Under the pieces are notes generated by a model. It was not told the DNA's origin. It ran no database searches and worked only from the letters and a program-made list of their open reading frames with translations. Positions 868 through 63,163 of a stretch of DNA of 64,000 nucleotides are shown here, in pieces. Both the position numbers and the translations under genes were made by a program. The stretch covers positions 96,001 through 160,000 of the forward strand of contig CM000436.1 of NCBI GenBank assembly GCA_000165345.1, given 5' to 3'. Numbering within the stretch: position 1 is the stretch's first letter; every line of letters starts with the position of its first letter.

Positions 868-1686
868 ATTAAGGTATTTAGAAGGAGGAAACATTGCACA
901 ATATGGTGATTGTGAGGTTGATTATTACAAATTCATATTAATAACATGAAAGTATCCAAAACTAATAGAATAAAATATTAATAGGAAATATGCTATAAAT
1001 AAGTTTCTTCTTCCTAATGTTTTGCTTTCTTCTTTTGTAAATATTATTTCCTATAGATTACTAACTATTGGAAAAGGGAGGTATGAGTATTGCAGTAAGG
1101 GCATAGAGTTTAGGTTTAATATTCACAGCTACACTTTGATAATGAGCCATATAGTTTAGAGAAGCAATTTGACTAATAAGTACAAGTTATATAAAGGCAA
1201 AGATTTTCAAATATCTTCTCCCTATCATAATTTGCTCAATATTCTGTATAATCCTTGTGTTAATTATAAATTGTTTATTGATCCCTGGCATGAAAAGTTT
1301 TGAATTATTGTAATTAATTAATTTTTCAAAGTAAGAGGAACCTTGCGAGATTCTAATAACTCTAAAAGCAATAATAATACAATTTCAAAGAATATTCAAT
1401 TCATCTATATGTAACTTATTCACAGTACACAAAATTATTATCTTATAATTAAAGGATTTATTTTTTTAAAAGAATGTTTTTTTCTTCCAATCCTCCCCCC
1501 TAAAGTTATTCCTATACCGGCATTAAGTACCGACACATAATGTCAACTAGACTTTGGCGCCATCTATTTTTGAAAAATAAGATTTTTTAATAGAAGAAAA
1601 AAAATATATTAAGAAAAACTTCAGCAAGAATTATTACATTTAAAGTAATATAAAGGGAAACTAGTAACATAACCAATCAATAGAGG

Positions 1687-4404
1687 ATGAGGTTTATGCT
1701 GAATGATTCCCAGTTCCAGAATTTAGGATCGATTATTAAAGATGTTAATAATTCCAGAGGTTTAGATTGTAATACAACATCTATCTGTCAAATTTCAGAC
1801 ATTTTATTTGTAGAATCTGAAGAATCTACTACTCCTAATAAATGCAACTGTAATCCAGAAGTAAATAATAATAATAATAATGATAATGATGATACTGAAG
1901 AATTTTCTTATTGTGAAGAAAAAGCCTTGTTAATTAAAGCTGGTTTCTCTGCCTGTATTAGAGCTTTTACTTTTGAAGGATTTTCTTCCCAAAATACTAT
2001 TGCAAAAGTAATTCGAATCTTTAGAAGGCTATTAAAAGGTGCTTCTATTATTAATATAAATTGCAATATCCATAAAGAAATGTTACAAGGATTAAGTGTG
2101 ATCTTCGGTATGATACCAGATTTCAATATTTTCAAAGTACTTCAAGCTCCTCTTAAAAACTATTTGTTTTGGTGTTATTCACAATCCGAAGATGATTTTG
2201 TTATTAATAATTCTAGAATTCTTCTTTGTGCTATTACTTGGATGAGGGAAGTTTCTTCTGGTAATAATAGTAATAATAATGATAATAACAATAGTAATAT
2301 TAACAATTATAATTCTAATAATAATGGACCAAAATATGGACTCACATTATTAAGTCAAGATTTACTTAACTTTCTAATTTCTGATATAAATATTTCAACA
2401 GAGCAGTTCCAACAAGAATCTAAACTTACTTTGAACAATCCAAATTCTTCTATTTTAGAACTTAAAAAAAGAATTCTTCGAAACCTTGAATTATTCTCTA
2501 ATCTTATCATATATTCTGGATTTTATCTTCCACCAAATTCCAATATATCAATTAACAGCCAGAATCTTTTTAATACCGGTGGGAATTTAGAAAATACATG
2601 CAAAAAAGAGGCGGGGAATTTTGTTACCACGCTGATTACTCCTCAAATTATGCAGGTTTTAAGTAATTTAAGAATAATTATTTTAGAAGAGGTATATAAA
2701 GTAGTTGATGAGTTTGTAAGTATTCATTTGGAAAGAGCTGAATCAGATCTTAATATTAATTCAAATGACAAAGTTAAGGAAAATTCAAAAGTTAAGCCAA
2801 AGTCAAAAGCCATTAATGATTCGGATTTAAGTAATGAATATGATAATAATAAATCAACCCAGTTAATTAAGGTTAAAGTATTGACTTGGATAATTTCTGA
2901 TATATTCGATATAAGGAATAATAGCAATAAGTTAAAGAATAAAGAAAATTCATATTCAACTTTATTCAACATAGGTAATAATAGTATTGAATCCAAACAT
3001 GAGTTATTCAATAAAGTGGAGTATATATTAATGCTTTCAAGTCTTCACCAAGACATCCTTGAAAATATGTTAAAAGTTTCAGGAAAAACCGGTTTGGTTG
3101 TTTATTCCCACATGATCCAAGAATATTTAATCTCAATCTTCTCATTAGAATATGTTCCTTCAACTTATTACAAATTCCAAAATGCTGAGATTTCTCAGTT
3201 TTTATTCAAAAATTATTACTCTAGTATTCTTTTTGGATTTGGTTTAATTCCAGAAACTAGATTCAATGATTTTGATTTCCAGATCTTTTTAACTTTCAAT
3301 GCAAGTATGAAGATATTGGAGTATTTTGAGAAGCTTTTCCAAGAAATATTAACTATTCAGGAATTCTCTATTGAATTAATAAATTTCAATTCGTCTCTAA
3401 ATAATAGCCATGAAAGTTATATACATTTTTCGACCTTAAAAGATATAATTACCATTAAATCACAAAGTCAAAAACTTCTCTCTCTTATAGAAACTTTTTG
3501 TCTTGCTAATAATGTAATTTTGGGTCTTAGATATACCAGAGTTGCTAAAGATTTTAGGCAAAAGAACCCATGCTTATCCTTGGATGGAATAATTAATAAA
3601 TATCATATTTCAAGTTCAAATGTTTTATACAATTTAATTATTAAGAATTGCCAATTATTCAATTTGAATCCTCTTGGAATTCAAAATTTAATAAATTCAG
3701 ATCCTCAAATTAAAAAGATTTTTATTAATTTGACTTATTGTATAGCAAATACTATTTCTGAATACTACCAAGACTCTGAAATAATTGCAAATCTTGCAGT
3801 TTTTAGTAATATTAATCAAATCTTGGACTGTCTATTATTCAATCTGGATTATAATATAAGAGATGAGAGATTTGAACCAATTTTCAAGTTCTTTAGGTCG
3901 AAAATTTATTTAGATTCTTTTTCAAATGATAAAGATAATGATGAAGCATGCTTCAATTCAAAAAATCTCAACAATATTCTTCTTAGTGCATCTTCTTATG
4001 ATTATTCCAAGAAAGAACTGCTTTATTTAGACTATAATGATAAGGACTTTAGTTCTGAGCCAGATAACAAATTAGAATCTGTGGATATAGATTCATTGCC
4101 TCAAGAACAACCAAATTATTTAGAACATCCTATTACTGTTTCTTCATCACCTTCATCTCCATCATCTCAAGTTGAAGAATCCAAAGAATTTGAAATGACT
4201 TCTTCCATGGATTTAGAAGAAGTTATGAAATCCGAATCTGAGACTGAATCTAAATCTGAAACTGACTCTGAATCTGAGTCTGAACCCGAGTCTGAGTTTA
4301 ATAATTTGAAACATGATGAAAACTCTAAAAAAGAGTCGTTGGATATGGATAATATTGATTTTAGTATGAATTTGGAGCCTTCCTCTGGAGAAGATGAAGA
4401 CTAA
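1687..4404 (+). CDS. Hypothetical 905-aa protein with Asn/Ser-rich low-complexity tracts and an acidic C-terminus of Ser-Glu (SESE/SETE) repeats
   Basis: Long uninterrupted ORF from ATG 1687, with coding-like codon usage. An E2F-like box lies about 125 bp upstream at 1554-1563. I recognise no conserved domain. Confidence 0.6.
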   Translation: MRFMLNDSQFQNLGSIIKDVNNSRGLDCNTTSICQISDILFVESEESTTPNKCNCNPEVNNNNNNDNDDTEEFSYCEEKALLIKAGFSACIRAFTFEGFSSQNTIAKVIRIFRRLLKGASIININCNIHKEMLQGLSVIFGMIPDFNIFKVLQAPLKNYLFWCYSQSEDDFVINNSRILLCAITWMREVSSGNNSNNNDNNNSNINNYNSNNNGPKYGLTLLSQDLLNFLISDINISTEQFQQESKLTLNNPNSSILELKKRILRNLELFSNLIIYSGFYLPPNSNISINSQNLFNTGGNLENTCKKEAGNFVTTLITPQIMQVLSNLRIIILEEVYKVVDEFVSIHLERAESDLNINSNDKVKENSKVKPKSKAINDSDLSNEYDNNKSTQLIKVKVLTWIISDIFDIRNNSNKLKNKENSYSTLFNIGNNSIESKHELFNKVEYILMLSSLHQDILENMLKVSGKTGLVVYSHMIQEYLISIFSLEYVPSTYYKFQNAEISQFLFKNYYSSILFGFGLIPETRFNDFDFQIFLTFNASMKILEYFEKLFQEILTIQEFSIELINFNSSLNNSHESYIHFSTLKDIITIKSQSQKLLSLIETFCLANNVILGLRYTRVAKDFRQKNPCLSLDGIINKYHISSSNVLYNLIIKNCQLFNLNPLGIQNLINSDPQIKKIFINLTYCIANTISEYYQDSEIIANLAVFSNINQILDCLLFNLDYNIRDERFEPIFKFFRSKIYLDSFSNDKDNDEACFNSKNLNNILLSASSYDYSKKELLYLDYNDKDFSSEPDNKLESVDIDSLPQEQPNYLEHPITVSSSPSSPSSQVEESKEFEMTSSMDLEEVMKSESETESKSETDSESESEPESEFNNLKHDENSKKESLDMDNIDFSMNLEPSSGEDED

Positions 4405-7810: not shown

Positions 7811-7998
7811 ATCTTTGAACTTTTTTTTAAAATACTCTTTCTATATTTTAGTTAAGCCTATCCATCAACACACGTCTAAATGAGCATTTCTTTCTTTCTA
7901 AATTATTCTCAATAATTGTTATTATCGCAAAATTTACCTTTCTACGTTAATTTAGTTTATTAATTTCCAATTAATCTGTGGGAACCATTTACATGCAC

Positions 7999-8060
7999 AT
8001 GCCCGCCACATATTTGGCGGTAAACATATGAGATGGCCAACTCCGTGATTGGCGCCTATA
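7999..8060. promoter_or_regulatory. Cluster of three E2F-like boxes (GCCCGCCA, TTTGGCGG, TTGGCGCC) in the promoter of the 1090-aa gene
   Basis: Sequence atgcccgccacatatttggcggtaaac...gattggcgcctat. It is an island of GC-rich motifs in AT-rich intergenic DNA, with a TGCATGCA box at 8092-8099. Confidence 0.45.
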
Positions 8061-8384
8061 TGTCGGTACCACGGCAAGCAAGGTTGACGAGTGCATGCAA
8101 TATCAGAGACAATAGTTGCAACAAAAACAACAGAAAAAATGAACAAAGGATAGAAAACTAATAATTAAAGTGAATAATAATAATAATAACAATGACAATT
8201 ATATTATTTAAAAGTTTCAAATGATACATAATGCTATCGCGTAAATTCCAGATAGAGATTTTAATCTTCCTCTTGTTAAGAATAAGTCAGAAAAATACAT
8301 TGACAGCTCTCCGTCTTCATTTTTTTTATCATTCAACCTTGTCAAAATTATTTGTTTTATTATAAAATTTCAGCCCAAATTAAA

Positions 8385-9164: not shown

Positions 9165-10070
9165 CTTTACTAATTCTTATTTCTCCTAAATATCGTCAAA
9201 TTCCTGATACCTTTCCAGTTAATAAGTTTTTTGAGGATATAAAAAAAATGTTCTCCAGTAAAGCTATTTTTAACTTTTAAAAAAACAGCAACTTCTTGTT
9301 TCTTCTTCTTCGACCTTAATTTAATAACCTTTTACAATTAATATTCAGATTATTACACCGCCTATTTAATTTACTTAGTCCAAGGTATGTTGTTTTGTAT
9401 ATAATTTATATATAAAAGAGACGCCAAATACTAAAAATTAATATATAACTATTTAAAATGTTTTTGAGACGTTTAATAAATTTATGCTTAATTTTAATTT
9501 TTCAATTATAATTATTAAATTAATGTTAACCTAAAAATATAAATATATATTTATTCATTTATTCATTAATTTATATATAAAATATAAATACAATTATTTT
9601 TGACCTTAACCTTTATAATATACCGGCAAAAAAATGTCGTCTCGTCTCCCAATTATATTATACATGTCTCAATTAGAAAAAAAATTATAAATTAACTTAT
9701 GACTACAAGTATAAATACCATTGAGACAGAAGTTTGTTTAAAATATTTATTGACAATATCATTATTAATTAATTTAAGCTTGAATAAATTTTAAAGTATT
9801 TAAGTTTATTTAATAAAATTTAATATACAATATATTTATTAATTACCAATTATAGTATTATTTTTTGGCGGCAAACTGATTAATTACTTAAACAATAATA
9901 ATCAATAAATAGTAATTAAAGATTAAATTTGACAATTATAAGTAACTATTAATAATAAGTTTTCCACAAATAATTAAAAAAAGCAAAAGCTGAAAAAACA
10001 AAAAGATCTTTATTTTGGTTTTTAAGGCAAAAAGCATTAGGCATTTTTATTAGTATCTTATATTAAAAAT
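9165..10070. promoter_or_regulatory. Shared divergent promoter region for RPL7a (-) and RPL5 (+)
   Basis: A 906-bp AT-rich intergenic region between two divergently oriented ribosomal protein genes. It contains an E2F-like box TTTGGCGGCAAA at 9865-9876 and TACCGGCA at 9621-9628. Confidence 0.5.
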
Positions 10071-11006
10071 ATGGCTTTTGTTAAGGTTTTGAAGAATAAG
10101 GCATACTTCAGCCGTTACCAGGTTAAACCACGTAGACGACGTGAAGGTAAGACTGATTATCAAGCTCGTCGTGCTATGATTTCTCAGGACAAGACAAAGT
10201 ACAACTCACCAAAGTACCGTTTTGTTGTAAGATTGACCAATACAAAAGTAATATGCCAAATTATCTATGCCACAATTGAGGGAGACAGAGTGATTTGCTC
10301 AGCAGACTCTACAGAATTACCAAGATATGGCGTCCCAGTTGGTTTAGCAAACTTTTCAGCAGCATATTGCACTGGTCTTTTATGTGCCAGACGTGTATTG
10401 AAACAACTCAATATGGATAAAATCTTCACTGGAGTTGGTGAGATTACTGGAGATGACTACCATGTAGAGGAAGAGGCTGAAGATAGAAGACCATTCAAGT
10501 GCATTTTAGATGTTGGTCTCACTAGAACAACAAGTGGAAACCGTGTCTTTGCTGCCATGAAGGGTGCTACTGATGGTGGAATCTATATACCACATTCCCC
10601 AAACAGATTCCCAGGATTCACCAAAGGTGAGAATGGTGCTGAAGACTCGTTCGATGCTGAAGTACTCAAGGATCGTATTCTTGGAAAGCACATTTCCAAC
10701 TACATGTCTGAGATGCAGGAAGATGATCCAGAGAAATACAAGGCTCACTTCTCTCAGTACATTAAGGCTGGTATCACTGCTGACAAACTCGCTGATATGT
10801 ACAAGAACGCCGTCAAGGCAATTCATGCTGACCCATCTCGTCAGAAGAAGCCAGCAAGAAAGGTAACCAAGACTCGTGTTGGAAACACTATTAAGACCGA
10901 GAAGTCCCAATACGTTAGACATGTTAAGCTAACTAACCAACAGAGAAAGGAAAGAGTCCAGAAGAAGATCGAACTTGTTGCTCAGTTGGCTGCTCAGGAA
11001 GAGTAA
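10071..11006 (+). CDS. RPL5: 60S ribosomal protein L5 (uL18), 311 aa
   Basis: N-terminus MAFVKVLKNKAYFSRYQVKPRRRREGKTDYQARR is diagnostic of eukaryotic RPL5, and there is full-length similarity. Confidence 0.9.
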   Translation: MAFVKVLKNKAYFSRYQVKPRRRREGKTDYQARRAMISQDKTKYNSPKYRFVVRLTNTKVICQIIYATIEGDRVICSADSTELPRYGVPVGLANFSAAYCTGLLCARRVLKQLNMDKIFTGVGEITGDDYHVEEEAEDRRPFKCILDVGLTRTTSGNRVFAAMKGATDGGIYIPHSPNRFPGFTKGENGAEDSFDAEVLKDRILGKHISNYMSEMQEDDPEKYKAHFSQYIKAGITADKLADMYKNAVKAIHADPSRQKKPARKVTKTRVGNTIKTEKSQYVRHVKLTNQQRKERVQKKIELVAQLAAQEE

Positions 11007-11621
11007 ATTTTGTAGAGGTATCATATAATAATGATGTTGCATCTATAGTGATAGTAACCCTTATTTAACACGTAGCTTTCTTCTTTTCAGTACATTCTTC
11101 CTTTTTTTTCATCTTATTGCGCTATTGCTTATGATTGACGTGCATTCTGACCTTATCTACGCTTTTTCCTTGCTTGTATTTAATTCTCACTCGATTTGTT
11201 CATTTTGTTTTATTCTCAGCTCTAATTTTGATTCCCAATTTAATTTAAATAAATGTTGCTAATCAAATTTACTTGTTCTAATTCTTGATTAAGCTATAAT
11301 TCTAACTTTTAACATTTTGTTCCTTTTTAATTAAACAATAATCATCCAAAAACTCTATATTACATGTGGATAAATACCGGCATTACTATTAATTATTTCG
11401 TCCACATTTTTTTAATGCATGTGCATGTTTTACCCGCCTAAATGAAGGTTAAAAATTAAAATACCGGTAGTACGTCAAAATATAGTAAAAAAAATTCAAG
11501 TTTGAAAGGAAAAAAAAAGAAACTAGGGGTAAAATAAGGAGCATCAAAACTTCCTCAGTCAAATAATGGAGCTGAGTGATTACATTTTGTACGTGAGTTA
11601 CAAGAGAGGAAATCAGTGAAG

Positions 11622-12500
11622 ATGGAGGGGAGTGAAGGTGGTGAGAATGGAACTGCCGAGTTTGATCCAAAAAGTTACGAAGAAAAATCCAGAGATCAAA
11701 AGACAAAGAATACTCAAAGCGAAGATGACCTTTTTGATTTGTTTATGAAGGAGGTTAATGAAGCAAACAGTAAAAGCACTAACCAAGGAAAAAACATTGG
11801 CAGAAATAATCATTCAAAAAGGGTCAAAATATCAAAGTTATTAATTGAAGGAAAAATAAAGGAAGCCATTAGTAGCTCATATGGCAATGATGAATTAACT
11901 ATAGGAACCTCAGAAGAAGAAATCCTACGTCTAACTTCACGTGTGTTTGCCAATGCATATGAAGTTATAGGGATACCAGTCGATTCTGATGATTCTGTGA
12001 TTGGTAAAAAGTATAGAAAGCTCTCATTATTGATCCACCCTGATAAGACAAGTCATGAAAAGGCTAGAGAAGCGTTTGAAATACTCAATAAGGCATATGA
12101 GGAGCTACAAAAGGCTGAAAATCGTGTCAAATACAAGGAAGTCTGGAAACGTGCTGAGGAATTAGTTAAGAAAGAAAACAAGAAAAATAAGCTCTTCAAA
12201 AAGGATCAACAAGATCAGGAAACCTATAAAAAGGAGTTTAATAAACAGGTTATAGAAATGTGCGAGAAGCTTTTAAATGATTTACAGGAGCGAAAGGAGT
12301 ACAGTGAAAAGTGTCTCTTAGCAAATCATAGATTTGAACAAGAATTATATAGACAAAAATTGCAGGAAGAAAAAGAAAGGTGTGTTCAAAGACAAAAATG
12401 GAATGAAAAATTTGAGGAAAGAGCTCAAGGTTGGAGATCATATAAACAAAATAACTCTAAATTATTCAACAATAAATCTAGCTTCGATAATGATGATTAG
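11622..12500 (+). CDS. DnaJ (J-domain) protein, about 292 aa
   Basis: J-domain with the HPD tripeptide (KYRKLSLLIHPDKTSHEKAREAFEILNKAYEEL). The ORF track begins at a GTG at 11616; the first ATG is at 11622. The C-terminal half is KE-rich. Confidence 0.7.
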   Translation: MEGSEGGENGTAEFDPKSYEEKSRDQKTKNTQSEDDLFDLFMKEVNEANSKSTNQGKNIGRNNHSKRVKISKLLIEGKIKEAISSSYGNDELTIGTSEEEILRLTSRVFANAYEVIGIPVDSDDSVIGKKYRKLSLLIHPDKTSHEKAREAFEILNKAYEELQKAENRVKYKEVWKRAEELVKKENKKNKLFKKDQQDQETYKKEFNKQVIEMCEKLLNDLQERKEYSEKCLLANHRFEQELYRQKLQEEKERCVQRQKWNEKFEERAQGWRSYKQNNSKLFNNKSSFDNDD

Positions 12501-19991: not shown

Positions 19992-20723
19992 GCCTTTTTG
20001 TTCATTTTTTCTTTTTAGATAACAATCTCGTTATTGTATATTCATAGCTTTAATTATTATATTTTTTTTTTAAATAGTTTTCTAAAGAAATAATTTTTAA
20101 AAACTTTCTCCTATAAAAATTAGTAAATTACCTATTACGTCATTTTTTACATATAGCTTTTGTACACGTATAATCATCTATATACCGGTATTGCATGCAT
20201 CCACATGAATTTACAAACATCAATAAAAAAAACTTTTGCATGCCTCCCCACATAAGCAATTGCGCGGTACTAGTTAGAGCAAAAAAAAAAAGTGAGTTAA
20301 TTCATTTTAATATTGTAAAAGAGAGGAAATAAAGAGTTTCTAAAAGAGGGTGGAAGGTAGGAATTAATAGCAAATAATTAAGTGACTAAAAAGTAAGGAG
20401 GAGGATAGATGTAAGATTTGGTCTCAGTTGGTGAATTCTTCAAGTTTATTTTGTGTAATTAGAGTTTATTTGCTGAAATACTGTGGATGAGAATCGCGGA
20501 ATAATATTTCTGGTTACTTTTTATATGAAAAGTTTTAATAAATAATTAGGTTTAAGAAAAGAGTGATTTGAATTCTACTGGCTGCTATAAAAAAAGAAAC
20601 CGTAATAAAATTTATAATACTTATACATTGTAACGTTTTTCAAGTAATAGAGCAATAATTACTGATTTTGTGAAATAGAAGAAATTCTGAGTTTTCAAGA
20701 ATCAATGCTAATTTAAGTTTGAT

Positions 20724-27651: not shown

Positions 27652-27671
27652 ACTAGTTACCGGTAACTAGT
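27652..27671. promoter_or_regulatory. Perfect 20-bp palindrome ACTAGTTACCGGTAACTAGT centred on the TTACCGGTAA core, in the Pus promoter region
   Basis: Read directly; the reverse complement is identical. Further ATACCGG and E2F-like (TTACCGCCTAAAC, 27778-27790) and GCATGCA (27803-27814) boxes lie nearby. Confidence 0.45.
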
Positions 27672-27885
27672 TTTTTTTATTAAAAAATTACTTTTAATAT
27701 TCTTCATAACCAAAAATTATTTTATACTTAAATATTTTAAATAATTAATGCCGGTATAGAAAGTAGTTTTTTCTAATTTACCGCCTAAACTGAATTTTTT
27801 TAATGCATGCAAGTACAATAATTAAATTATTAAAAGTGTTGAATTTTCTTTTTAAATTATATTAAGAAACTTTTTGACTTTAGAA

Positions 27886-35365: not shown

Positions 35366-36872
35366 CCACATGCATTTTAGTGTCATATCCAACCACTAAA
35401 AATTTGACCAAAAAGTTTTTTTTAATAACTTAAATTGTATAAAACAACCTCTAAGTTAACATTTAAGTATTATTAATCTTTGTTTTTATTTATTGTTTTC
35501 AAAATTATTTTATTCCCAATTTTGTCATTGAACTTTAAATAAAGATGGCCTTTCATCTTTTCCCCACATAGTTGCACACGTAATTATAATAATCAGATTA
35601 TAAATATATTTTCTCCTTAAAATTTGGATCTTTTCAAATTGTTTTCTCTATCATTTAAAATTATTCTCATTTTCATTTTCTTATTTCATTCTTATTGTCC
35701 GTTTCTATTGCCATTAATTTAATAATTTTTAAAAACCGTCAAATAATTTCAAAGTATAAATATTAATTTAGTATTTTTTTTCTATAAACTTATTGGTATT
35801 TCAACTTCTTATTATTGTCCACATAATACTGGCATGACAAAAACAAATTATTTTCTTAACTACATACCGGAGTACATGCAATCCTTGCATGTAGTAAAAA
35901 AAAAAAAAGAAAGTTGATATAAGGAAATTTGAAAAAATGAGATAAAATTATGTTGATTAAACTTTCAGAAAATGTACAGAACTTTGTAAATCTTACAACT
36001 ATCGGAAATGAAAGCATTAAATAATTAAAAAATAGAGTAAGAGTTATTGGAATAATAACATTAGTAGATTTAAACCAGAGATAAAAGTAGTTAGTTTAGT
36101 GGTTGCATTAGTACTAGTGGTGCAGTAATAGCAGAAATTATTTTATTCATATTAAGAAAAAATTAATAAGAAAGGAAGTAATAGGTAGTTTTATGTCCAA
36201 CCCGAAATGCAGAATCTAAAACTAAGCTTAAAGTAAAAGAAAATACATTGTCTTTTCAAACATTTGAAGCACAAATAAAAAGCAGTACCAATTAACTGTA
36301 GAGTAAATGCACGACAAATTCAGGGTAAAATTAGAAATTAATTTTTCATCTTAAGTTATTCACTGGAACACTTATTTATATTCAAAAATAAGAGAATTAT
36401 TCAGAGAATTGAAAACTAACACATAAAAAAAAAGATGAAAATTAATAGAAGAGAATTCAATATTAACAAAAAAAAAATTCACAAATTCAAAATACTCTTT
36501 CAATAAAGGGAATAATACGTCAAAGTGACGCAAGTTTTTTTAGGCAGCTCCTCTACTAAATTTAAAAAAAAAATTCATTTATCTCTATTATTATTTAATT
36601 TAAATACAATGCTATATTTCCATTATTAATATTAATTCATAAATATATATTACAGTTCGACCTTTTCTTCAAATTTTATCTATGATTACCGCTAATTCTG
36701 ATAATTTTCATTCTGCTAGTTTTCATATGTAATTTTTAATTAACTACTATTATTTCACAATAAATTCCTATTTATTTTTCATTTATCTATTCTATTAATC
36801 AATCCCTGCCTTATTACCCATTTTTCACTATTACTTTAATCTGACATAAATAGTCGAATAATATATTTTATT

Positions 36873-52956: not shown

Positions 52957-53475
52957 GCATGTGCCCGCCAAATTGACTTATATTTGTCATTTAATTTTTA
53001 TTGGTACTAATAATATAAAAATGTGAAAACAAATTTTTTTTAAATAAAAAAAATTACTTGATTAGTGATCCATTATGAAAAAGAATATGTCTGAATTCTT
53101 TAAAACATATTGCTATCCTATTGTTACATATTTTTATAAAGTTGATTTGCTTTCGACAAACTGATAAGGAAGAAATAAAACAGAATATCCTTATACTACT
53201 TGTTTTTCTACTATTCTCCTTTTTCCTACCTTACAGCCTATTTCAGTTTAAGTAGATATACCGGAGTCTTCACACCAAAAATTGATTTTAAGAAAGTAAA
53301 TAATTACATAACAAGCAATTTAAAATAAAAAAAAAGACTAGACTAAAGTCAAACAATCTCTTCCATCTTATTATTTTATCTTTTTTTAAAGTATTTACCG
53401 TCTTATAATTAATTAAGACTCACCCCACTGTAAGAATCGGGAAAAAAAGAAGTGGCGCCAAAATTTGGGCGCTGG
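52957..53475. promoter_or_regulatory. Divergent promoter region of the hydrolase paralog pair, with E2F-like boxes at 52957-52974 (CATGTGCCCGCCAAATTG) and 53450-53475 (AAGTGGCGCCAAAATTTGGGCGCTGG) and ATACCGGAG at 53258-53266
   Basis: Motifs read directly in the 879-bp intergenic region. Confidence 0.4.
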
Positions 53476-53619
53476 ATCGAATTATAGAGGACAATAAAGG
53501 CAAATAAGAAATATCAAAGGTAAAGTCAAATATAATAAAAAAATTAATACATTTTTAAAAGTTAAATTAATAGAAAAAAAAAGGGGCAAAATAATTTAAT
53601 AACTTTTAGTAATAGCAAT

Positions 53620-54873
53620 ATGTGGTTATTCAAATACATATTTGCAATCATAAGTTTTGCTTATGTAGGTATCTTCAAAGTTTATGGAGAAGAGCAAAAA
53701 GTCATTCCTGACCACTTTTACTTTGAAGAAGGCTCTAAAATCCAATTATCACATGGAATAGTTAATTATCAATTACATAAAGAAAATGATGATGGACCTA
53801 TTTCTGTATGTCTTCATTGTTTTATGGGTACAATTTCAGATTGTTCAAGTATTTCAAAGAATTTAGCTAAGAATGGTTATAGAGCTTTAAGATTTGATTT
53901 TTATGGGCATGGTTTGTCTCAATATAAAAATTTTGGACAATATTCTGTGGATGATTATGTTGACCAAACAATGGAATTACTTGAGAAATTGGGTCTTTAC
54001 AATGTAACTGCTATTTCTGAAGAAGAGTTACATTCAAGTAGTTTTATACCAAAGTTGCATGTAATAGGTACATCTTTGGGTGGATTTGTAGCAATGAGAA
54101 TTGCTCAAAGATTTCCAAAACATATTAGCAAGTTAGTTTTAGATGCTCCTCCTGGTTTATTGAAGAAGAAAGTTGCACCTTATTTACAATATTCAATCAT
54201 TAACTATCCATTACAACTTTTTGCCAATATATACTCACCAGTTTGGGGTTGTTATCAATTTATGGATCCTCCATCTGAGAATCTTTCTTCTCCAAAGCTT
54301 GATTTTAGAGCAAAGCACTATTGTAAACAAATACTTTTAACATCTCTACAACTATTTTTGGGAATTAATTTATGGAATAATCAACAAATTTATCAAGAAT
54401 TTAGTAAAGTCGATGTACCAACTCTTTTTTTCTGGGGAGCTGAAGACAGATTATGCCCACTTTCTTCAGCCATTACTATTCTAAATGAATATGTACCAAA
54501 CACAAAGATTATTGTTTATGAGAATTGTAAGCATAGATGCTCTAAATATTGTAAAGAACAATTTGTTGAAGATGTTATTAAATACTTTAACAATGAATTA
54601 GACCAAGAACTTGTGTCAATGTCACAATATTACAATTCAGTGCATGATATAGTTCATTCTTCAGAAAAGAGATCACTTCCATCAATTAGAGGTACCAAAA
54701 CAGATACTTTATTAGAGCCTAGCTCAATACCTGAAGATACATGTTCAACAAGTACATCTGGTAGTCAAGAAATTGCAGTTCAGTTAGCATCCTCAACTGA
54801 AGAAAATACCGAGACTGGGAGTTCTATGAGTAGTTCAGAAAATTTCGATGATTTTTGTAAAACTAAGAATTAG
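53620..54873 (+). CDS. Alpha/beta-hydrolase fold protein with N-terminal signal/anchor and Ser/Thr-rich C-terminal tail, 417 aa
   Basis: N-terminal hydrophobic MWLFKYIFAIISFAYVGIF. VCLHCFMG oxyanion region, GTSLGG nucleophile elbow and C-terminal NCKHR. Clear paralog of 51763-52740 (NYALS…ICFHGLLSSISSFKQL…GHGLS versus NYQLH…VCLHCFMGTISDCSSIS…GHGLS). Confidence 0.7.
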   Translation: MWLFKYIFAIISFAYVGIFKVYGEEQKVIPDHFYFEEGSKIQLSHGIVNYQLHKENDDGPISVCLHCFMGTISDCSSISKNLAKNGYRALRFDFYGHGLSQYKNFGQYSVDDYVDQTMELLEKLGLYNVTAISEEELHSSSFIPKLHVIGTSLGGFVAMRIAQRFPKHISKLVLDAPPGLLKKKVAPYLQYSIINYPLQLFANIYSPVWGCYQFMDPPSENLSSPKLDFRAKHYCKQILLTSLQLFLGINLWNNQQIYQEFSKVDVPTLFFWGAEDRLCPLSSAITILNEYVPNTKIIVYENCKHRCSKYCKEQFVEDVIKYFNNELDQELVSMSQYYNSVHDIVHSSEKRSLPSIRGTKTDTLLEPSSIPEDTCSTSTSGSQEIAVQLASSTEENTETGSSMSSSENFDDFCKTKN

Positions 54874-55544
54874 ATAAAGATATGAGTTTAGAAAAAAAAA
54901 AAAAAAAAAAAGAAATTACCAATTTCTATCAAAATTTTAATTAGAAAGCTTCTTGCTATGAAAATGGGATATTAATCAATGAATATATTAGAATGAGTGA
55001 GAATTGGATGACACTCCTGGGAGTCCTAAATGTTAGCCTGTAATCAGTTATACTTTAATTGGTGTGCTTCATTAAATAGGATTTCCCAATACTGGAGATA
55101 GAACAATTACAGTTGAAGGAGTTAAATTATAAAATATCTCAGAAACCCAAACTCCTTAACTGCTTCAGTAGGAGATAACGTTCTATTCTTTTATACATTT
55201 TATTCAACCAAATTTTACTAGAATTGAAGTATTTTCTAATTAATATTTATGTTTAACTTAAAAATATATTAATTGAAACTTGATAATATGTGAGCGAAAG
55301 CTTTTACTTCTTAAAAAAACAGAATAAAAGTTCTTATGTTCTCTTGAAAATTTCTATTAATTATATTTTTCCATAAACTCTTCAAGAATTTGGAAATTTC
55401 TGCATGCATGAATACATGCACTAATTTCTGGGAATGCCGCTTTTTCATAAATGACATAATTGTTACGTGTATGTTTAAAAAACAAGAAAAAATTAATTAA
55501 ACATTATTTACAGAATACTAGAGTAGCATATAAATTAAATATTG

Positions 55545-58109
55545 CTATTTAGTTCTTTTCTTAGTTTCTTTAGTTTGTCTTCCTAAAGCTTTGCTTTTTT
55601 TGACTTTAATTAGTGAGCCAAGGTCATTGGACGCTTTAGATTTGCTTTTTGAAGATTTAGAAGAGTCTTCATCTTGGTCAATATCATCGTCATTTTCATC
55701 AAATTCATCCTCGCCTCCATCATCTCGATCTTCACCTCCTTTTCTTGAGAGTTCATCAGAGTCTTCAGATTTGTTATTTTTTTTTGATTGAATAGAAAAT
55801 TTGACTGCATGAGTAGTAGAATTGATCATTCTAGTCATAGTAGTTTTAGTTTTGCTATCAACTTTATCATAGGTTCTGACTTGGTTTTTAAGCATTAAAG
55901 ATGAGATATGTTCAATTAGATGATTTCTATTGAGACAATATTCATCCATGAATGAAATACTCATTTGAATAGCATCTTTTGTATCCATCTTACTATCAAG
56001 TAAAGGAGCTGTGGCCTTAAAATAAATTAAATCAAGATATCCAGAAAGTTTTAGTCCTTTCGATGAAGGACAGTTTCCTTTTCTTCCAACAGTAATAATA
56101 GCCATAAGTTCACTTAAAAGTCTCTTATTTTTATTAGTTGTAGAGTTCTTTCCAAGCCATTTTGGGAATTCAGGTCTAGCTAAAAATGAATTTGTAGAGC
56201 AAAGTCCTGGAGCAACTGCACAATTCACTGCAATTTCAGAAAGTAAGCTCCATTCATTATCAGTTCTGAGTTTGGCATTAAATACATCAGCTTCAACAAA
56301 TAAGTTTGCAGTTTCAAGAACGCTTTCAATCATTTGAGGAGTTACAGTCATTTGCTGATTAGAAGATCCTGATCCAAATCCGCCTCCACTTTTTACAGAT
56401 AATGCTGAAATGTAATTCTCCTCAAGTAAAAGAGGCATTAAATCAAAATCTATAAAAAATATTTCCAGCTTATCATTTATTGAAAGATGTGACGATTCAC
56501 TAGTTGTTAAGAGTTTTTTTGTTGCTGAGAATACATCTAAAGTAACCTGAACATCTTTTAAGTGACCTGAGATTTCTGTTTTAACATCAGAAAAGCGAAC
56601 ATTTATATTTGATAAAGATAATAGCTGTAATTCGTTGAGTATTTGTCTTAAATCATTACCAACTGATTCACAAAGTAGCTCAATTGCATTTGGTTCGATC
56701 TTCATTCCTTCTTTATTTGCAATTTCTTGCATTCTTTTTATGATTTGAACTTTCGATGGACGACTAAATCTTAAATCATAACATTTTGGAGCCAAATTAC
56801 GTACTTTCTCACTCATTCTATCATTACATATACATATTATTGGCCACCTAGTCTTCTGAATTAGCCTTCCAAGAGCTGCTGCTCCTCCTCTATCACTTCC
56901 ACCTAAGCCATCCATCTCATCCATTATCAATAACATATTAGTATTTAGGCCACCTTCTTCACCAAATTGGCTACTAGATGAAGATTTTCTAGCAAAAGTT
57001 GATAGAGAAAACCCACCAACAGCACTTTCCGATAGATTTTCAATTACTTCTTTTGTTCTATCATCACTTGCATTCATTTCTATTGGGATATATCCACACT
57101 TCTTCGCAATTAAAGTAGCTACTGTAGACTTTCCTATGCCAGGAGGACCACTTAATAAAGCCGCTCTAGCATTGATATTTTCAACTTGAGGAAATCGACT
57201 ACCTGGTGAAAATGAGGCTTTAGGAGGGGCTTTCTTCTTACCCTCGATTACTACTGATTTCCAATCAGAAAGCCAAGTTTGTAATTTTTTAATCACTTCT
57301 CCATTACCCAATACTTGGTCAAGTGATTCTGGTTTGTGTCTATCTGTCCATAAAGAACTATTTCCATCAAAATTACTATTATTCATATTTCCTTCATTTA
57401 TTTTATTTCCGCTTTCAAACACTCCATGAGATTTCCGGTTTGGAGATTGACTATCATATTTTGCTTCTTTTTGTTTATAATTTGTATAAATCTCAATAAA
57501 CTCATCCTCACTTAGAATATTGACACCTTTTGATTTGGCATTACGATATTTGCTGCCTTCTTCAATTGATCTTCCATCTTCCAAAGAGTTGCCTGCTATT
57601 AAGTATGAGGTTCTACCACTTACAGCTGAGGTCAACTTTCCTCCTAAAATCTTTACAAAATCTTCTATTTCTTGTCTAGAATTGTTATTAAAAGTACCGG
57701 TAACGACTATACTCATCCCGTTAAAAGGACCTATCAATTCTTCGTCACTTTGAGAATTAGAGCTAATTTTATCTGTTTTTGTATTTAAGTTTGATTTTGA
57801 TGATGATGATTTATTTCTTTTAGGTGAACTTTCTTTTTCAGCTTTGACTTTTACATCCTTTTTTCTTCTACTTACAGGGCTTTTCAAATCTTCTTCTTCA
57901 TCCTCATCACTGCTCATTACTTTGTGTAATCTAGATCTCTTTGAAGTTTTTTTCAACTTTATTTCATTGTCTTTAGTTTCATTATCACTATTTACATTTA
58001 CTTTATTTTTCTCATCTTTGTTTATTTGAGTATTTGAATCCACTTTTTTATTATCTTGCAACTTCTTCTTCTTACAGCTTGAAAAGTAATCGTCCAATGT
58101 TAACTCCAT
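55545..58109 (-). CDS. RFC1: Replication factor C large subunit (RFC1), 854 aa
   Basis: BRCT domain (GMSIVVTGTFNNNSRQEIEDFVKILGGKLTSAVSGRTSYLIAGN). AAA+ Walker A LLSGPPGIGKST, Walker B LIMDEMDG and sensor CICNDR. KE/S-rich termini. Confidence 0.85.
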   Translation of the reverse strand: MELTLDDYFSSCKKKKLQDNKKVDSNTQINKDEKNKVNVNSDNETKDNEIKLKKTSKRSRLHKVMSSDEDEEEDLKSPVSRRKKDVKVKAEKESSPKRNKSSSSKSNLNTKTDKISSNSQSDEELIGPFNGMSIVVTGTFNNNSRQEIEDFVKILGGKLTSAVSGRTSYLIAGNSLEDGRSIEEGSKYRNAKSKGVNILSEDEFIEIYTNYKQKEAKYDSQSPNRKSHGVFESGNKINEGNMNNSNFDGNSSLWTDRHKPESLDQVLGNGEVIKKLQTWLSDWKSVVIEGKKKAPPKASFSPGSRFPQVENINARAALLSGPPGIGKSTVATLIAKKCGYIPIEMNASDDRTKEVIENLSESAVGGFSLSTFARKSSSSSQFGEEGGLNTNMLLIMDEMDGLGGSDRGGAAALGRLIQKTRWPIICICNDRMSEKVRNLAPKCYDLRFSRPSKVQIIKRMQEIANKEGMKIEPNAIELLCESVGNDLRQILNELQLLSLSNINVRFSDVKTEISGHLKDVQVTLDVFSATKKLLTTSESSHLSINDKLEIFFIDFDLMPLLLEENYISALSVKSGGGFGSGSSNQQMTVTPQMIESVLETANLFVEADVFNAKLRTDNEWSLLSEIAVNCAVAPGLCSTNSFLARPEFPKWLGKNSTTNKNKRLLSELMAIITVGRKGNCPSSKGLKLSGYLDLIYFKATAPLLDSKMDTKDAIQMSISFMDEYCLNRNHLIEHISSLMLKNQVRTYDKVDSKTKTTMTRMINSTTHAVKFSIQSKKNNKSEDSDELSRKGGEDRDDGGEDEFDENDDDIDQDEDSSKSSKSKSKASNDLGSLIKVKKSKALGRQTKETKKRTK

Positions 58110-58514
58110 GACTATAGACTCTTCAGCTAGATTTAAAAGAAAAACTTTATTTATTCTTTGCTGAATCCTTTAAATCTTATTTTTCAATCATTATGGTACC
58201 CCACTTTCATGTTTGCCGGCAGTATACCTGTTTTTGATTATTTGTTAAAATATTTGAAATTATTCAAAAATTAATTTTTTTTTTAATTTTATTCCAATTA
58301 AAAACTTTGCGATTACCTAGAATGAATTATTTTCTTTGACTTTATTATAAATCCTTGAAAAATCTTATTGAAAGAAAAAAAAGTCTTGTTCTTCCTTTCT
58401 TGTTAACTATTAAAATAATCTAATCTTGTTATTTATTCTTTTTGCAATTTCTGATTTTCTTATTATTATTGGAAATAGCACTAAATTGATTTTACTCCTT
58501 TATCTAATAATATA

Positions 58515-59297
58515 TTAATAATTAAATATTGAATTATTATTTTCATTTAAAAGTTCCATGATTTCGTATTCAACTTTGTATCCATTTTTTATATTATAAT
58601 CTATATCCTCACTTAAAATCCTCGTTCTATTCTTTTTAACAGTAGTTATATATGGAGAACGGTAATAATTAATTGGATTATATGGATATCCTAAATATCC
58701 ACTTCTAAACATTGGATACTGATTTTGTGGTATTTGATGTATGACTTGTGGAATTACATCAAATTGATGATAACCAACAGGTCTAAAAACTACTTGATCT
58801 CTATGTATTAGTTCATATTCTGCCATTCTTCTTGAATTTAAAGGTTGATATGATACTGTATTGTTGTTGTAATCAGTATTGTTAAAAATATTTTCATAAT
58901 TGAAATTATATTTTGGATTTGGAATAAGTGGAGTTACTAATTGAAAAGTATTATTAAATGTTTTGTTTCCAAGCCCTAATAATCCTATATTTCCAATAGT
59001 ATCAAGGAATTTTTGACTGGAGTTTCTGTAAATATTTGATCCGCCATCCTCTTCTTCTTTAATTAACATTGTTAAATTGTAATTATTCAAATCTCTAATA
59101 TTTTGGTTTTCTTGTAAATATTTAATTCCCATTTTAGCTTCATTATTTCCTATATTTTGAGTAACTAAATCTCCTTTTCCATAACTTTCCATTGACTTGA
59201 AAATAATGAAAAACAAAATGGTTCTAATTCTCCAACTTGATTTTCGAGATAAAATCCCCTTTAAAAACCCCCTGGCCTCAATTTCTGAATACCTCAT
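58515..59297 (-). CDS. Hypothetical secreted or membrane-anchored Tyr/Asn/Pro-rich protein, 260 aa
   Basis: N-terminal hydrophobic segment (WRIRTILFFIIFKSMESYG). Mature region has about 13% Tyr plus Asn-rich composition, with N-glycosylation sequons. Upstream boxes include ATGCATGCATGCAAT (59518-59535) and TTGTTACCGCCATTTC (59553-59568). Confidence 0.5.
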   Translation of the reverse strand: MRYSEIEARGFLKGILSRKSSWRIRTILFFIIFKSMESYGKGDLVTQNIGNNEAKMGIKYLQENQNIRDLNNYNLTMLIKEEEDGGSNIYRNSSQKFLDTIGNIGLLGLGNKTFNNTFQLVTPLIPNPKYNFNYENIFNNTDYNNNTVSYQPLNSRRMAEYELIHRDQVVFRPVGYHQFDVIPQVIHQIPQNQYPMFRSGYLGYPYNPINYYRSPYITTVKKNRTRILSEDIDYNIKNGYKVEYEIMELLNENNNSIFNY

Positions 59298-60222
59298 ACC
59301 TCAACTCTTTGTTTAAAATAATATTTAGAAATATCCTTTAATAATTATAATTTATATAATATATATATTATAAGGATTTATCATTCAAATAATAAAAAAT
59401 TATAATTTTTATTTTGACCTTTCCCCATTTTTTTTGAATTTTTTAAACGTAATTTTTATTGATATTCATTTGATGCAACTTACATCCATAATAATTTGGC
59501 ACATGCTTGTATTGCAAATATGCATGCATGCAATTTTGTTACAAAATGACAAATTGTTACCGCCATTTCTAAATTATTGCATGTGGAAAATTATATGAAA
59601 AAACGAATAATAATGTTATTTAACTAAAATACGAGAATAAGGTAATTAGAGTTGAAGTTTTTTTATAACAACTAATACGAGTATAAGAATTTCTAGTTGT
59701 AATTATTTTTAAACAATATGAAAATAATATAGAGCAATCATTGGGAATTAATAGTAAATGTTTAAAAATAGTTTTTGTTAAATTTATGATTCTTTAAATA
59801 AATTAAAATATTATTTTTCTCTTTTTTTCAGAAAAGAAGTATAATTATAATTTAAAGGTCAATGCAATTGTTAAAAGTGTAATTATTAGAAATTCTAAAT
59901 AAATTAAACTCTGTAACAATAATAGTTCTTTAGAGACTACTCATACTATCTGCGAACTATTCAAATAAACACTTCGTACTATTTACTGATTAAATAATGA
60001 AAAAATCAAGCAATGCATTTTTCACATCCTGGTGTGAAGATTTTTTAAAAAAGGGCAAGTATTTATGTATTTATATTAGTTTTCTAGCCCTTCAAAACTC
60101 TATAAATCTTAAAAGTGAGAGTGGTCAAAATAAATAGTGGTAATTCTATGGAACTTATTTTATTATTATTTCTTTTTTATCATTCTCAGCTATATATAAG
60201 AATTTGACAGTAAATCACTATT

Positions 60223-60287
60223 TTATTGGCGGCAATTTGTCAATTTTCAAGTATAATAAAAATTTTAGAATACTTTGGCGGTAAATG
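60223..60287. promoter_or_regulatory. Two E2F-like boxes (TTATTGGCGGCAATTTG; TTTGGCGGTAAATG) in a long ORF-free region
   Basis: Read directly. They lie about 770-830 bp upstream of the PSMD5-like gene and may drive an unannotated transcript. Confidence 0.35.
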
Positions 60288-61050
60288 TGATTTATATTAA
60301 TCCTAATTATTTAATTATTATATACTGGTAACATTTAATAAAGTAATAATAACAAAAGGCAAAGTGAAAAGTAAATAAATATACAAGTTAAATTTTACGG
60401 AATAAATATATTTATTTATAATTTCTTTATTGAATGACTTATTTTCCCATATCAATATTAAGGGAGTAGAGATTAAAATATCCCTATGTTTGGAATGAAT
60501 TCAAATAATGAATGCATCCTTATTAGATAGTACAATATTTTAATGTGAACGCCTGTATCTAAGACGACATGCTGCAATTACCACTTGTTCGTTAATTCAC
60601 CCTGGCAATATTGATTTGAGTATGGAAATGAATTATTCAATATAATACTGGTCAGAATTTTTTTACTTTTGGCTGGGTAAATAAGTGCTCAAATAGGTGA
60701 ATATTAATTTTTCCCACCATTCGATACAGTGAATATTGTTATGAATAAAGTGGGTAGGTTTAAAGTTCCATAATCTTAGAGATAGAACTACAATAGAATA
60801 TAGGATGTTCTAGTTCATATAAGGATGCCGAAATTGAGGAATTTTGACCACCCGGGATGTACATTGTATTAAGGTGGCCTTGATCGGTTATATTTGTTAT
60901 TCTTATTCGTTTAGGTGATTCTGGCGCACACAAAGATAATATGTCAGTCTCGAAAAAATAAATAAATAAATATTAATATTCCAATTAATTAATTAGGAAA
61001 AGAAAATAAAGAAAATTGAATTGATATAAATTTTGAGATCATTTCCAAAC

Positions 61051-62568
61051 ATGGGCAGTAATTTGGATAATGACTTGAAAAAGAAATTACAGGTTTTTTT
61101 AGCCTCCCCCCTATGTAAAGAGTCTTATAATGAACTTTCTAATGTAATATCAATAATTGGTTTACTAGAATTATTACTTAATTCAAATACTATGGATGAC
61201 ATTACATTGATTACTGAAGTTTTAAAACGTTTGACTATATTAGGAGTATTGGACGATGCTATTTTTGATATTCCAAATTCTATAGAGATGTTAGAGAAAG
61301 GATCAAGATCACAAACGGAATGTATTAGATTACTGGTAGCTTTTATTTTAAATTCACTTTCTATGGATGAGTTAAAATGTAAAAAAGCTTGTGAAAAAGG
61401 ATTTTTTTCAGTATTGGGATTATTATTAAGAGATATAGATATATCAATAGGTGAGTCAGCATCAAAAACACTAAAATCTATTTCAAAAAGTAACCCGGAA
61501 TTTGTATATGATCAAAATTTAATAAATAAGTTATTGGAAAATTTTAAATCATTGAAAGATGAAACTAGATTGAGAATTATTGATACTTATATATCAATAG
61601 GTTCAGTTTCTGAAGATTTATTTAATAAATGTCAAGAAAAAGGTGAATTCTACTCACTAGCTTTAAAAGAATATTTTACAGAAGATATTTTGTTAAAACT
61701 AGTTTCAATGAAATTATTAGAAGATTTAGGTGAATATAATTGGGGAGTAAAGTTTATAATAAACAATTCAACTCCAGAATTATTAATTGATGATCTTAAT
61801 AATCCAATGTTTGATGATGAAATAAAAATTTCAATAGTATATTTATTGTCAAAGATGGTAAATAATAATCCAGAATTGTCACAAAAAATACTTACAATGT
61901 CAGGGAATTCATTTGTTCAAACTTTCAAGGAGTTTATGGGATCTTATAACAGCATAAGTTGTAGTGAAGATTATTTAAAATCGGTCTGTGCAATAAATTG
62001 TTGGGGATTATTTGCTTCTAATTTAATAAGTTTTCAAAATTTAATGAATGTTTGGGAAGATTCTTTTCACCTAATGCTCAAACTTGTCTCTAATTCAAAA
62101 TCAGAGATTTCTCTTTCTAGTTTGAATTCTTGGGTAACTTTCTTTGAGAGTAAGGATATAAATCAAATACTAAATCAAACAAAAACAACTTTTGGATTGA
62201 AACAAAGTATTGAAACCCAACTTTTACCTATAATTATTTCAGATTTAATTTCAAAACCTTTTCCTGAAAATAGAACATTAATTTACAAAATTTTAACATT
62301 AATGATACCTTATTTCTCAAACATAACATCGAATTTAATTTCAAATAGTAAAATTAGAGATATTTTGTTGAACCCAAATAGTGATTCAAATAAAGATATT
62401 CTATATATCAAATATGACCTTGTTAAGCAGATGGTAAAATACGATCAAAACACTATAAATAATATTCCTGATCCTAATTTCAGTTCATCTTTGCAAGAAT
62501 ACGTTAAAGTTGGACCATTTTATAAATCTAGCTCAGCAGAAATGCAAATACAAGACATAACTATGTAG
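61051..62568 (+). CDS. PSMD5/Hsm3-like proteasome assembly chaperone (ARM/HEAT-like), about 505 aa from first ATG
   Basis: Length and segmental similarity to PSMD5 (ETRLRIIDTYISIGSVSEDLF versus RYRVYELIIEISSVSPESL; C-terminal YVKVGPFYK versus YLSEGPYYVKP). The track start at 61033 is a TTG; the first ATG is 61051. Confidence 0.5.
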   Translation: MGSNLDNDLKKKLQVFLASPLCKESYNELSNVISIIGLLELLLNSNTMDDITLITEVLKRLTILGVLDDAIFDIPNSIEMLEKGSRSQTECIRLLVAFILNSLSMDELKCKKACEKGFFSVLGLLLRDIDISIGESASKTLKSISKSNPEFVYDQNLINKLLENFKSLKDETRLRIIDTYISIGSVSEDLFNKCQEKGEFYSLALKEYFTEDILLKLVSMKLLEDLGEYNWGVKFIINNSTPELLIDDLNNPMFDDEIKISIVYLLSKMVNNNPELSQKILTMSGNSFVQTFKEFMGSYNSISCSEDYLKSVCAINCWGLFASNLISFQNLMNVWEDSFHLMLKLVSNSKSEISLSSLNSWVTFFESKDINQILNQTKTTFGLKQSIETQLLPIIISDLISKPFPENRTLIYKILTLMIPYFSNITSNLISNSKIRDILLNPNSDSNKDILYIKYDLVKQMVKYDQNTINNIPDPNFSSSLQEYVKVGPFYKSSSAEMQIQDITM

Positions 62569-63163
62569 ATAATTTTTATTGCATATTTATATTTAATTAT
62601 TTTTTATTTCTTTTTTTTTTATTTATTTTTACCATTTTTTGTTGAAATCATTTTCATAATTCATTTTAATTTTTTTTTATTATAATAAAAATTTTGCATG
62701 TGGACAATATTTTGGTTAGTAAACACCGGTATATGCAATAATTAGAATTACGTGTAATACCGGCAAGTCAATAAAAAAGTAGATAATAATTGCGGAAAAA
62801 AAAAAATCATAATAATTTTCCATGTGTGAGGAACTAAAAAAAAATTTATAAAAAAGAAAAAAAGAATAATAAACAATAAATAAATAATAAAGTTAAAAGG
62901 AGTAGTAAATAAATATTTTATTTTTTACATAATAAATAAATTATTTTCTTCAATAAAAGGAAGGATTATTTGTTTATATTATCAATTTAATAAATTTAAT
63001 ACATAAAGTAATAAATATTAAACAAAAATAAAACAGTATTTAAAATATCACAATTAATCACAACATAATTCAAATATTTATATTATTATAAGTAAATTTA
63101 TGTGAATATACATAATTGTATATATTTATATATATGTACATTATATAACTTTAAATTTATATA

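Follow-up and report, generated by a model that had tools for sequence, protein, structure and literature searches.

Analysis of a 64 kb stretch of Cryptosporidium parvum chromosome 8 (assembly GCA_000165345.1, contig CM000436.1, positions 96,001 to 160,000; hereafter the window) uncovered a short inverted-repeat word, TRCCGGYA, that is probably a functional Cryptosporidium promoter element (probability roughly 0.75), most likely a transcription factor binding site. Its enrichment, base specificity, restriction to non-coding DNA, upstream placement, occurrence in pairs and signs of purifying selection together fit a transcription factor site of growth-gene promoters. The window lies around cgd8_440 and has the compact, nearly intron-free content of a eukaryotic genome with ~30% G+C; its RPL5 (cgd8_440), ankyrin-HDAC and RFC1 proteins are exact matches to C. 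parvum proteins. It was compared with two syntenic blocks in relatives, 22-kb loci reached via the HDAC and RFC1 protein orthologues, in which gene order is identical across Cryptosporidium species. Eight other species were sampled: chipmunk genotype I, C. ubiquitum, C. canis, C. felis, C. bovis, C. ryanae, C. andersoni and C. serpentis. Expected counts were derived from dinucleotide-preserving shuffles and, for coding DNA, from synonymous-codon shuffles within each open reading frame (ORF).

Enrichment, word form and placement

The heptamer ATACCGG has 15 matches on both strands of the window, against 1.07 ± 1.03 expected, and none of 100 dinucleotide shuffles reaches 15. A preliminary description of the window, made from the letters alone, had put the expectation at about 3 on both strands, which is correct under a single-base model; with dinucleotide composition taken into account the figure is about 1. 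The palindrome TACCGGTA is found at six window sites (0.13 expected), and TACCGGYA gives 17 strand matches (0.33 expected). In a ranking of all 6- to 8-mers from DNA beyond the long ORFs (21.6 kb), ATACCGG/TACCGGTA forms the third non-trivial intergenic word family, behind the E2F box (GGCGCC) and TGCATGCA, and TA stands on one or both sides of 11 of the 17 intergenic CCGG words.

Word specificity was evaluated from the one-mismatch neighbours of TACCGG. TACCGG itself is enriched 9.4x over expectation and TGCCGG 16x, while 13 remaining neighbours lie between 0.2x and 2.0x; the E2F-like TACCGC is also enriched, as part of the separate E2F-like TTACCGCC words. TGCCGG, which is the other half of TACCGGCA, is the sole neighbour enriched as part of the motif. 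With these two words enriched and the other neighbours flat, the motif is defined as TRCCGGYA. The consensus is A-TACCGG-T/C-A-T: A precedes TACCGG at 10 of 11 sites, A or T follows the motif, and the second half-site prefers T or C and then A. The full TACCGGTA palindrome is present at 3 of the 11 C. parvum sites and, in the other species, at 17 of 38. Orthologous sites alternate between TACCGGTA and TACCGGCA, and the Y position is therefore tolerant.

All twelve intergenic sites listed in the preliminary description (which had claimed at least 12) are present, some displaced by one base:

1514..1523, + strand: ATACCGGCAT, ~170 bp upstream of the ATG (1687) of a 905-aa ORF; an E2F box GGCGCC lies 41 bp away
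9620..9629, + strand: ATACCGGCAA, followed by TCGTCTCGTCTC, in the divergent L7Ae/RPL5 promoter, with the two ATGs at distances of 460 and 447 bp
11374..11383, + strand: ATACCGGCAT, in the RPL5-DnaJ spacer, upstream member of a pair
11461..11470, unstranded: ATACCGGTAG, with palindromic core TACCGGTA, 151 bp upstream of DnaJ
20182..20199, unstranded: ATACCGGTAT, directly adjoining TGCATGCA, 538 bp upstream of SAS-6
27652..27671 (core 27658-27665), unstranded: 20-bp palindrome ACTAGTTACCGGTAACTAGT, 214 bp upstream of a pseudouridine synthase gene
27748..27757 (heptamer at 27751), - strand: ATACCGGCAT, 305 bp upstream of the pseudouridine synthase gene, 91 bp from the palindrome
35864..35881, + strand: ATACCGGAGT, followed by ACATGCAA, in the long divergent spacer between a TSP1-domain gene and a 2360-aa ORF
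53258..53267, + strand: ATACCGGAGT, in the divergent promoter of two alpha/beta-hydrolase genes
58214..58221, unstranded: TGCCGGCA, with the weaker TG form in both half-sites, 107 bp upstream of RFC1
62724..62733, - strand: TATACCGGTG, 484 bp upstream of the Mcl1/Ctf4 ORF (ATG 63210)
62757..62766, + strand: ATACCGGCAA, 450 bp upstream of Mcl1/Ctf4, 34 bp from the preceding site

The exact heptamer occurs outside ORFs at ten of them (1514, 9620, 11374, 11461, 20182 on both strands, 27751 on the - strand, 35864, 53258, 62726 on the - strand, and 62757). The other two read TTACCGGTAA (27658), which contains TACCGGTA though not the heptamer, and TGCCGGCA (58214). The reported perfect 20-bp palindrome, ACTAGTTACCGGTAACTAGT, was recovered exactly at 27652-27671.

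Every intergenic site has a position that suits a promoter. Distances to the downstream start codons are ~100 to 550 bp, and the genes concerned serve growth and housekeeping: ribosomal proteins L5 and L7Ae, DnaJ, SAS-6, pseudouridine synthase, RFC1 and Mcl1/Ctf4. No site was found in convergent 3'-3' spacers, which total only ~1.5 kb and are too small for this to mean much. Three homotypic pairs, with members 34, 87 and 91 bp apart, compare with 0.61 expected (P ~0.024). An apparent orientation bias of TACCGGCA towards the downstream gene is consistent within C. parvum and was discarded on account of a flipped orthologous site in C. bovis.

ATACCGG also occurs within ORFs, at four positions absent from the preliminary description (2573, 6390, 14690 and 41279), which likewise omits the ORF copies of TACCGGTA given below. 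The hexamer count in coding DNA is 8 against 1.6 expected by dinucleotide shuffle, but 4.85 are expected by synonymous-codon shuffle (P 0.12), and a coding enrichment was rejected since the apparent excess is mostly gone under this model. In the relatives the excess is limited to intergenic DNA, with none in their coding DNA.

Two features of the annotation were recorded alongside these counts. Stretches at ~24388-25941, 50363-51762 and 46465-47073 were counted as intergenic, yet synteny places genes there, probably intron-bearing; genes missed as single long ORFs are Ten1, a ubiquitin-conjugating enzyme and a CDP-alcohol phosphatidyltransferase, and no TACCGG site falls in any of them. Nine N characters, standing for masked or unresolved bases, are present at 13408-13415 and 48548-48576, within the CPSF73 and RPN1 coding regions.

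Conservation across Cryptosporidium

Enrichment in relatives was evaluated in the seven species of the HDAC block (all but C. serpentis). Six of them have an intergenic excess of TACCGG-type cores, or seven of eight counting C. parvum:

Chipmunk genotype I: 9 observed, 0.48 expected
C. ubiquitum: 4 observed, 0.33 expected
C. canis: 6 observed, 1.26 expected
C. bovis: 3 observed, 0.40 expected
C. ryanae: 3 observed, 0.60 expected
C. andersoni (gastric): 4 observed, 0.32 expected

None of 300 shuffles attained the observed count in five species, and only 4 of 300 did so for C. bovis and C. ryanae. When C. andersoni and C. serpentis, the gastric species, are taken together, ACCGGT(A) ranks second among intergenic word families, behind an E2F-like box. 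The top intergenic word in these two species is GGCGCTA/AGCGCC rather than GGCGCC, which suggests that the E2F-box consensus has shifted in the gastric clade.

Conservation of individual sites was assessed at ten of the twelve, those from 9620 to 27748 and from 53258 to 62757; site 1514 lies beyond the syntenic loci. Seven of the twelve C. parvum sites are retained at orthologous positions in diverged species, amid otherwise diverged sequence. At the DnaJ site (11461), where TGCATGTGCATG, CCCGCC, TACCGGTA and ACGTCA follow one another as a module, the core is kept in all six other aligned species, as TACCGG in five and as TGCCGG in C. bovis. The SAS-6 block (20182) is conserved in seven species, of which five are exact (C. 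parvum included) and two carry one mismatch (TACTGG in C. ubiquitum, TACCGT in C. felis). The L7Ae/RPL5 site (9620) has a TACCGG counterpart at its position in three relatives, chipmunk genotype I, C. ubiquitum and C. canis, and the corresponding C. andersoni spacer holds two TACCGG sites. The synthase pair (27658/27751) is kept in three to four species. Its second member aligns with TACCGGTA in chipmunk genotype I and C. canis, while only the core (T/A)ACCGGTAA of the 20-bp palindrome is kept in chipmunk genotype I and C. ubiquitum. The outer arms of that palindrome show no conservation even in close relatives, so only its core counts. The RFC1 site (58214) is kept in two to three species; its block GGTATACTGCCGGCAAACATG is intact in chipmunk genotype I and reads AACCGGCA in C. 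canis. The Mcl1 site at 62724-62733 is kept in chipmunk genotype I and C. canis. At its partner, 62757-62766, both have the identical block TATTGACTTGCCGGTATTACACGTAA, and they retain the 34-bp spacing; C. ryanae has one site.

To place these sites against background, each of 8,086 aligned intergenic hexamer positions was scored by the share of other species that carry the identical hexamer, and the scores were averaged within word classes. The mean is 0.439 (P ~0.0002) for TACCGG/CCGGTA, compared with 0.133 when all positions are pooled and 0.216 among the remaining words of four G/C; of the known motifs, E2F words score 0.488 and TGCATGCA words 0.548. Judging from these identities, the motif is under purifying selection comparable to that on known motifs. 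The earlier proposal of a cis-regulatory element is thereby supported, with an excess confined to intergenic DNA in six of seven other species and a word retained upstream (0.44 against a background of 0.13) while its flanks diverge.

Base composition differs among the syntenic loci, with 45-47% G+C in C. canis and C. felis against 29-33% in the other species. C. canis retains the motif sites despite this shift (its spacers have ~40% G+C), whereas most of them are lost from C. felis. Loss or turnover of a site is exemplified by the word CCGGTACC, which is kept in the spacer between a 1090-aa gene and L7Ae in chipmunk genotype I, C. ubiquitum and C. canis (L007 1067, L001 1108 and L002 1444) and has no counterpart in the C. 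parvum spacer 7811-8384.

Promoter function and its alternatives

Under the favoured reading, a sequence-specific factor would bind TRCCGGYA in the promoters of growth-related genes, probably as a homodimer or domain-swapped dimer that contacts a strong half-site, TACC, and a tolerant one, GGTA or GGCA. Two-fold symmetry and the graded second half-site suggest dimer binding; the dimeric factor proposed in the preliminary description is consistent with this second half-site preference and with the full palindromes. Both protein binding and an effect on transcription are what we infer from the DNA sequence. Some sites belong to composite modules with the ApiAP2 word TGCATGCA and E2F boxes.

Several observations weigh against a promoter element. 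The case for function is one of enrichment and conservation, and the sample consists of 64 kb plus two syntenic blocks, so that orthologous sites are not independent. C. felis is without enrichment (1 intergenic site in the HDAC block, 1.43 expected). Site 53258, the weakest, is absent from the orthologous spacer of chipmunk genotype I, C. canis and C. ryanae, and site 11374 is poorly conserved, being common only to chipmunk genotype I, the closest relative. TACCGGTA occurs three times within ORFs (416-423, 41280-41287 and 57695-57702) against 0.29 expected by synonymous-codon shuffle, an excess that a pure promoter model leaves unexplained. From published data, the listed primary array motifs of ApiAP2 proteins lack CCGG and none matches, with four ApiAP2 proteins having given no motif (PMC12246861), and MEME on sporozoite open chromatin gave just E2F and poly-T motifs. 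As a separate observation on the coding copies, the codons of the one in RFC1 specify V-T-G-T within the BRCT domain; chipmunk genotype I retains this copy and C. ryanae nearly does.

It is improbable that the motif is instead a variant E2F/DP site, in which some Cryptosporidium E2F/DP combination would bind TACC|GGTA half-sites rather than TGGC|GCCA. Oomycetes, which carry an identical TACCGGTA motif, also have E2F/DP. Both the E2F/DP site and the motif are 8-bp palindromes in a T...A frame, eight intergenic TTACCGCC words have TACCG in common with the motif, TGCCGGTA is one base from the E2F-like TGGCGGTA, and the 2013 supplement of Oberstaller et al. classed CCGGCAAATTTTGGCG and GCCGGCA as E2F-like. 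The eight intergenic TACCGC words, at 8017, 16492, 20264, 24780, 27779, 36687, 59558 and 60278, look like an E2F-box variant and extend to TACCGCC in five cases. They are preceded by T (7 of 8), whereas TACCGG is preceded by A (10 of 11). The E2F-defining GCGC/CGC is absent from the motif core, and no motif site has the E2F/DP core [C/G]GCGC[G/C] between a run of T and a run of A. In the RPL5-DnaJ spacer 29 bp separate the E2F box CCCGCC from TACCGGTA, each conserved as a block of its own, and an E2F word stands within 30 bp of just 1 of 12 sites, which is not significant. The core, the flank, the separate conserved blocks and the flat one-mismatch neighbours all bear out the earlier distinction between the motif and the E2F box.

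The same description had the motif frequently next to GCATGCA or E2F boxes. Particular cases stand (TGCATGCA abuts at 20192 and ACATGCAA at 35874), although adjacency is weak as a general rule: a GCATGC-type word is found within 30 bp of 3 of 12 sites (P ~0.03), and E2F words show no significant association, as noted above. Two other intergenic words were observed near the sites. CCACATG/CATGTGG is in intergenic excess (7 against 0.64), at 11360, 20205, 62700 and elsewhere, and adjoins TACCGG and TGCATGCA blocks, for example as TGCATGCATCCACATGAA at 20192-20209. GAGACG/CGTCTC boxes are repeated in the L7Ae/RPL5 spacer at 9400-9720 (GAGACGCC, TCGTCTCGTCTC, TGTCTCAAAT and TTGAGACAG); they are conserved in up to seven species, with an aligned identity of 0.667, and are similar to the orphan motifs grouped as 'unknown set 1' in Oberstaller 2013.

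A further explanation is that the word is conserved for another role, as a chromatin boundary or nucleosome-excluding element, a replication-related element, or an RNA element in a long 5' or 3' untranslated region. Several sites do stand between tandem genes and may fall in the 3' region of the upstream gene (20182 is 195 bp past the HDAC stop, and 11461 is 459 bp past the RPL5 stop), and the copies of TACCGGTA in ORFs exceed codon-aware expectation. Against this, the site in the divergent L7Ae/RPL5 spacer cannot belong to a 3' region, sites on either strand and palindromic sites fit DNA recognition better than RNA, sites share blocks with known DNA-binding motifs, and the convergent 3'-3' spacers, though just ~1.5 kb, are without sites. 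We consider such a role about as unlikely as a variant E2F/DP site.

Chance or a compositional artefact, such as CpG context bias or a dispersed repeat, is highly improbable. A few sites do weigh heavily in a sample of this size, given the rarity of CCGG in AT-rich DNA, but shuffles fail to reach the counts (0/100 for the window, 0/300 in five species), neighbouring words are flat, similarity among flanks ends at ~11 bases, and sites are conserved where flanks diverge.

Four specific identities were tried and rejected. A dispersed repeat or mobile-element remnant is at odds with the unrelated flanks, the longest common string being TACCGGCATTA, at three sites. Scans of the window for a structured RNA gene or its promoter returned no Rfam family and no tRNA. 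The RFX X-box has the consensus GTNRCC(0-3N)RGYAAC, which only 27656-27667 (GTTACCGGTAAC) fits; the other sites read ATACC, without GT. The ETS-like word ACCGGAAG has a single occurrence, at 14691, within the CPSF73 gene.

Related motifs and the candidate factor

The motif is uncatalogued for Cryptosporidium as far as the literature searched shows, while promoter words of this kind are themselves known. Oberstaller et al. 2013 list 25 upstream motifs (PMC3734150, Table 1), and a 2025 review gives six upstream motif families, several of which lack a known factor (PMC12246861, Table 3); the word is in neither set. No relevant CCGG motif was found in Oberstaller 2013 and 2014, Mullapudi 2007, Cohn 2010, Campbell 2010 or a 2019 ApiAP2 review, a search whose scope stopped short of Bankier et al. 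2003 and the Oberstaller 2014 supplements (array logos). The same holds for a 2021 paper on long non-coding RNA, a 2024 macrogamont paper, a 2025 preprint on chromatin accessibility (ATAC-seq) and the 2025 review. The word had been glimpsed in the 2013 supplement, in two clusters, and was then merged into the E2F-like class.

The closest likeness is an oomycete motif, reported as M94 (TACCGGTA), a predicted promoter motif of Phytophthora infestans (PMC3597505), as motif-9 (GTACCGGTA; Seidl et al. 2012, PMC3520976), an abundant word that precedes 1,284 genes, and as streme-5 (ATACCGGTAT) in Plasmopara halstedii (PMC10031896). These share with the Cryptosporidium motif an identical 8 to 10-bp inverted repeat, (A)TACCGGTA(T); both are over-represented upstream of genes and both are orphans. 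Oomycetes are of stramenopile lineage, and their motif is tied to infection-stage, RXLR-effector and elicitin genes, in contrast to the housekeeping genes of Cryptosporidium.

Within Cryptosporidium, the AP2_1 word TGCATGCA, known from other Apicomplexa too and bound by ApiAP2 domains of cgd2_3490 and others, is likewise an 8-bp palindrome in a T...A frame with intergenic enrichment. It is conserved at 0.55 against 0.44 for the motif and sometimes directly abuts it. Its core is GCATGC where the motif has ACCGGT, which places the motif outside AP2_1, and its binders are known from protein-binding arrays. The Cryptosporidium E2F/DP box ([A/T][C/G]GCGC[G/C][A/T], TTTGGCGCCAAA) similarly presents a GC-rich palindromic core in AT-rich promoters; it is very abundant, occurs upstream of replication and ribosomal genes, and has GCGC where the motif has CCGG.

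A more distant likeness is to the plant dehydration-responsive element TACCGACAT, whose A/GCCGAC core is bound by DREB/CBF AP2/ERF domains. ATACCGGCAT, found at three window sites, agrees with it at 8 of 9 positions. ApiAP2 and plant AP2/ERF domains are homologous, and an AP2-type reader of the CCG core is plausible. The 2025 review also notes that ApiAP2 domains resemble the plant AP2/ERF group (PMC12246861). The plant CCGAC core itself is not found at the motif sites, which read ACCGGC or ACCGGT; TACCGA is at background (5 against 4.5), and the plant element has no counterpart of the motif's palindromic form.

As to the factor that would read the motif, our guesses are graded. Families other than ApiAP2 and E2F/DP (bZIP, single-repeat Myb and zinc finger), pooled as one class, receive the largest share, a little short of even. 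An ApiAP2 protein whose isolated domain gave no array motif is a tentative guess that ranks somewhat lower than that pool, and a divergent E2F/DP pair is a minority option of low probability. In order of rank, ApiAP2 proteins without an assigned motif come first, then another dimeric family such as bZIP or single-repeat Myb.

Cryptosporidium is a major cause of childhood diarrhoea, and its gene control is poorly understood. Conserved genus-wide and ranking just behind E2F and TGCATGCA in this sample, the motif offers a concrete bait for a missing regulator, by pull-down (ATACCGGTAT against ATAAATTTAT) or by arrays with motif-less ApiAP2 proteins such as cgd6_5320, cgd3_1980 and cgd6_1140, and it would improve promoter design for transgenic tools. 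A more far-reaching and rather doubtful proposal is that an ancient factor is common to Cryptosporidium and oomycetes. The shared ATACCGGTAT palindrome would then reflect common descent within the stramenopile, alveolate and rhizarian (SAR) lineages. In the Cryptosporidium promoter code the motif would be a third pillar next to E2F/DP and ApiAP2, and expression-cluster motif searches would have missed it because it serves constitutive growth genes. The match to the orphan oomycete motif raises the possibility of a regulator shared across distant parasites.

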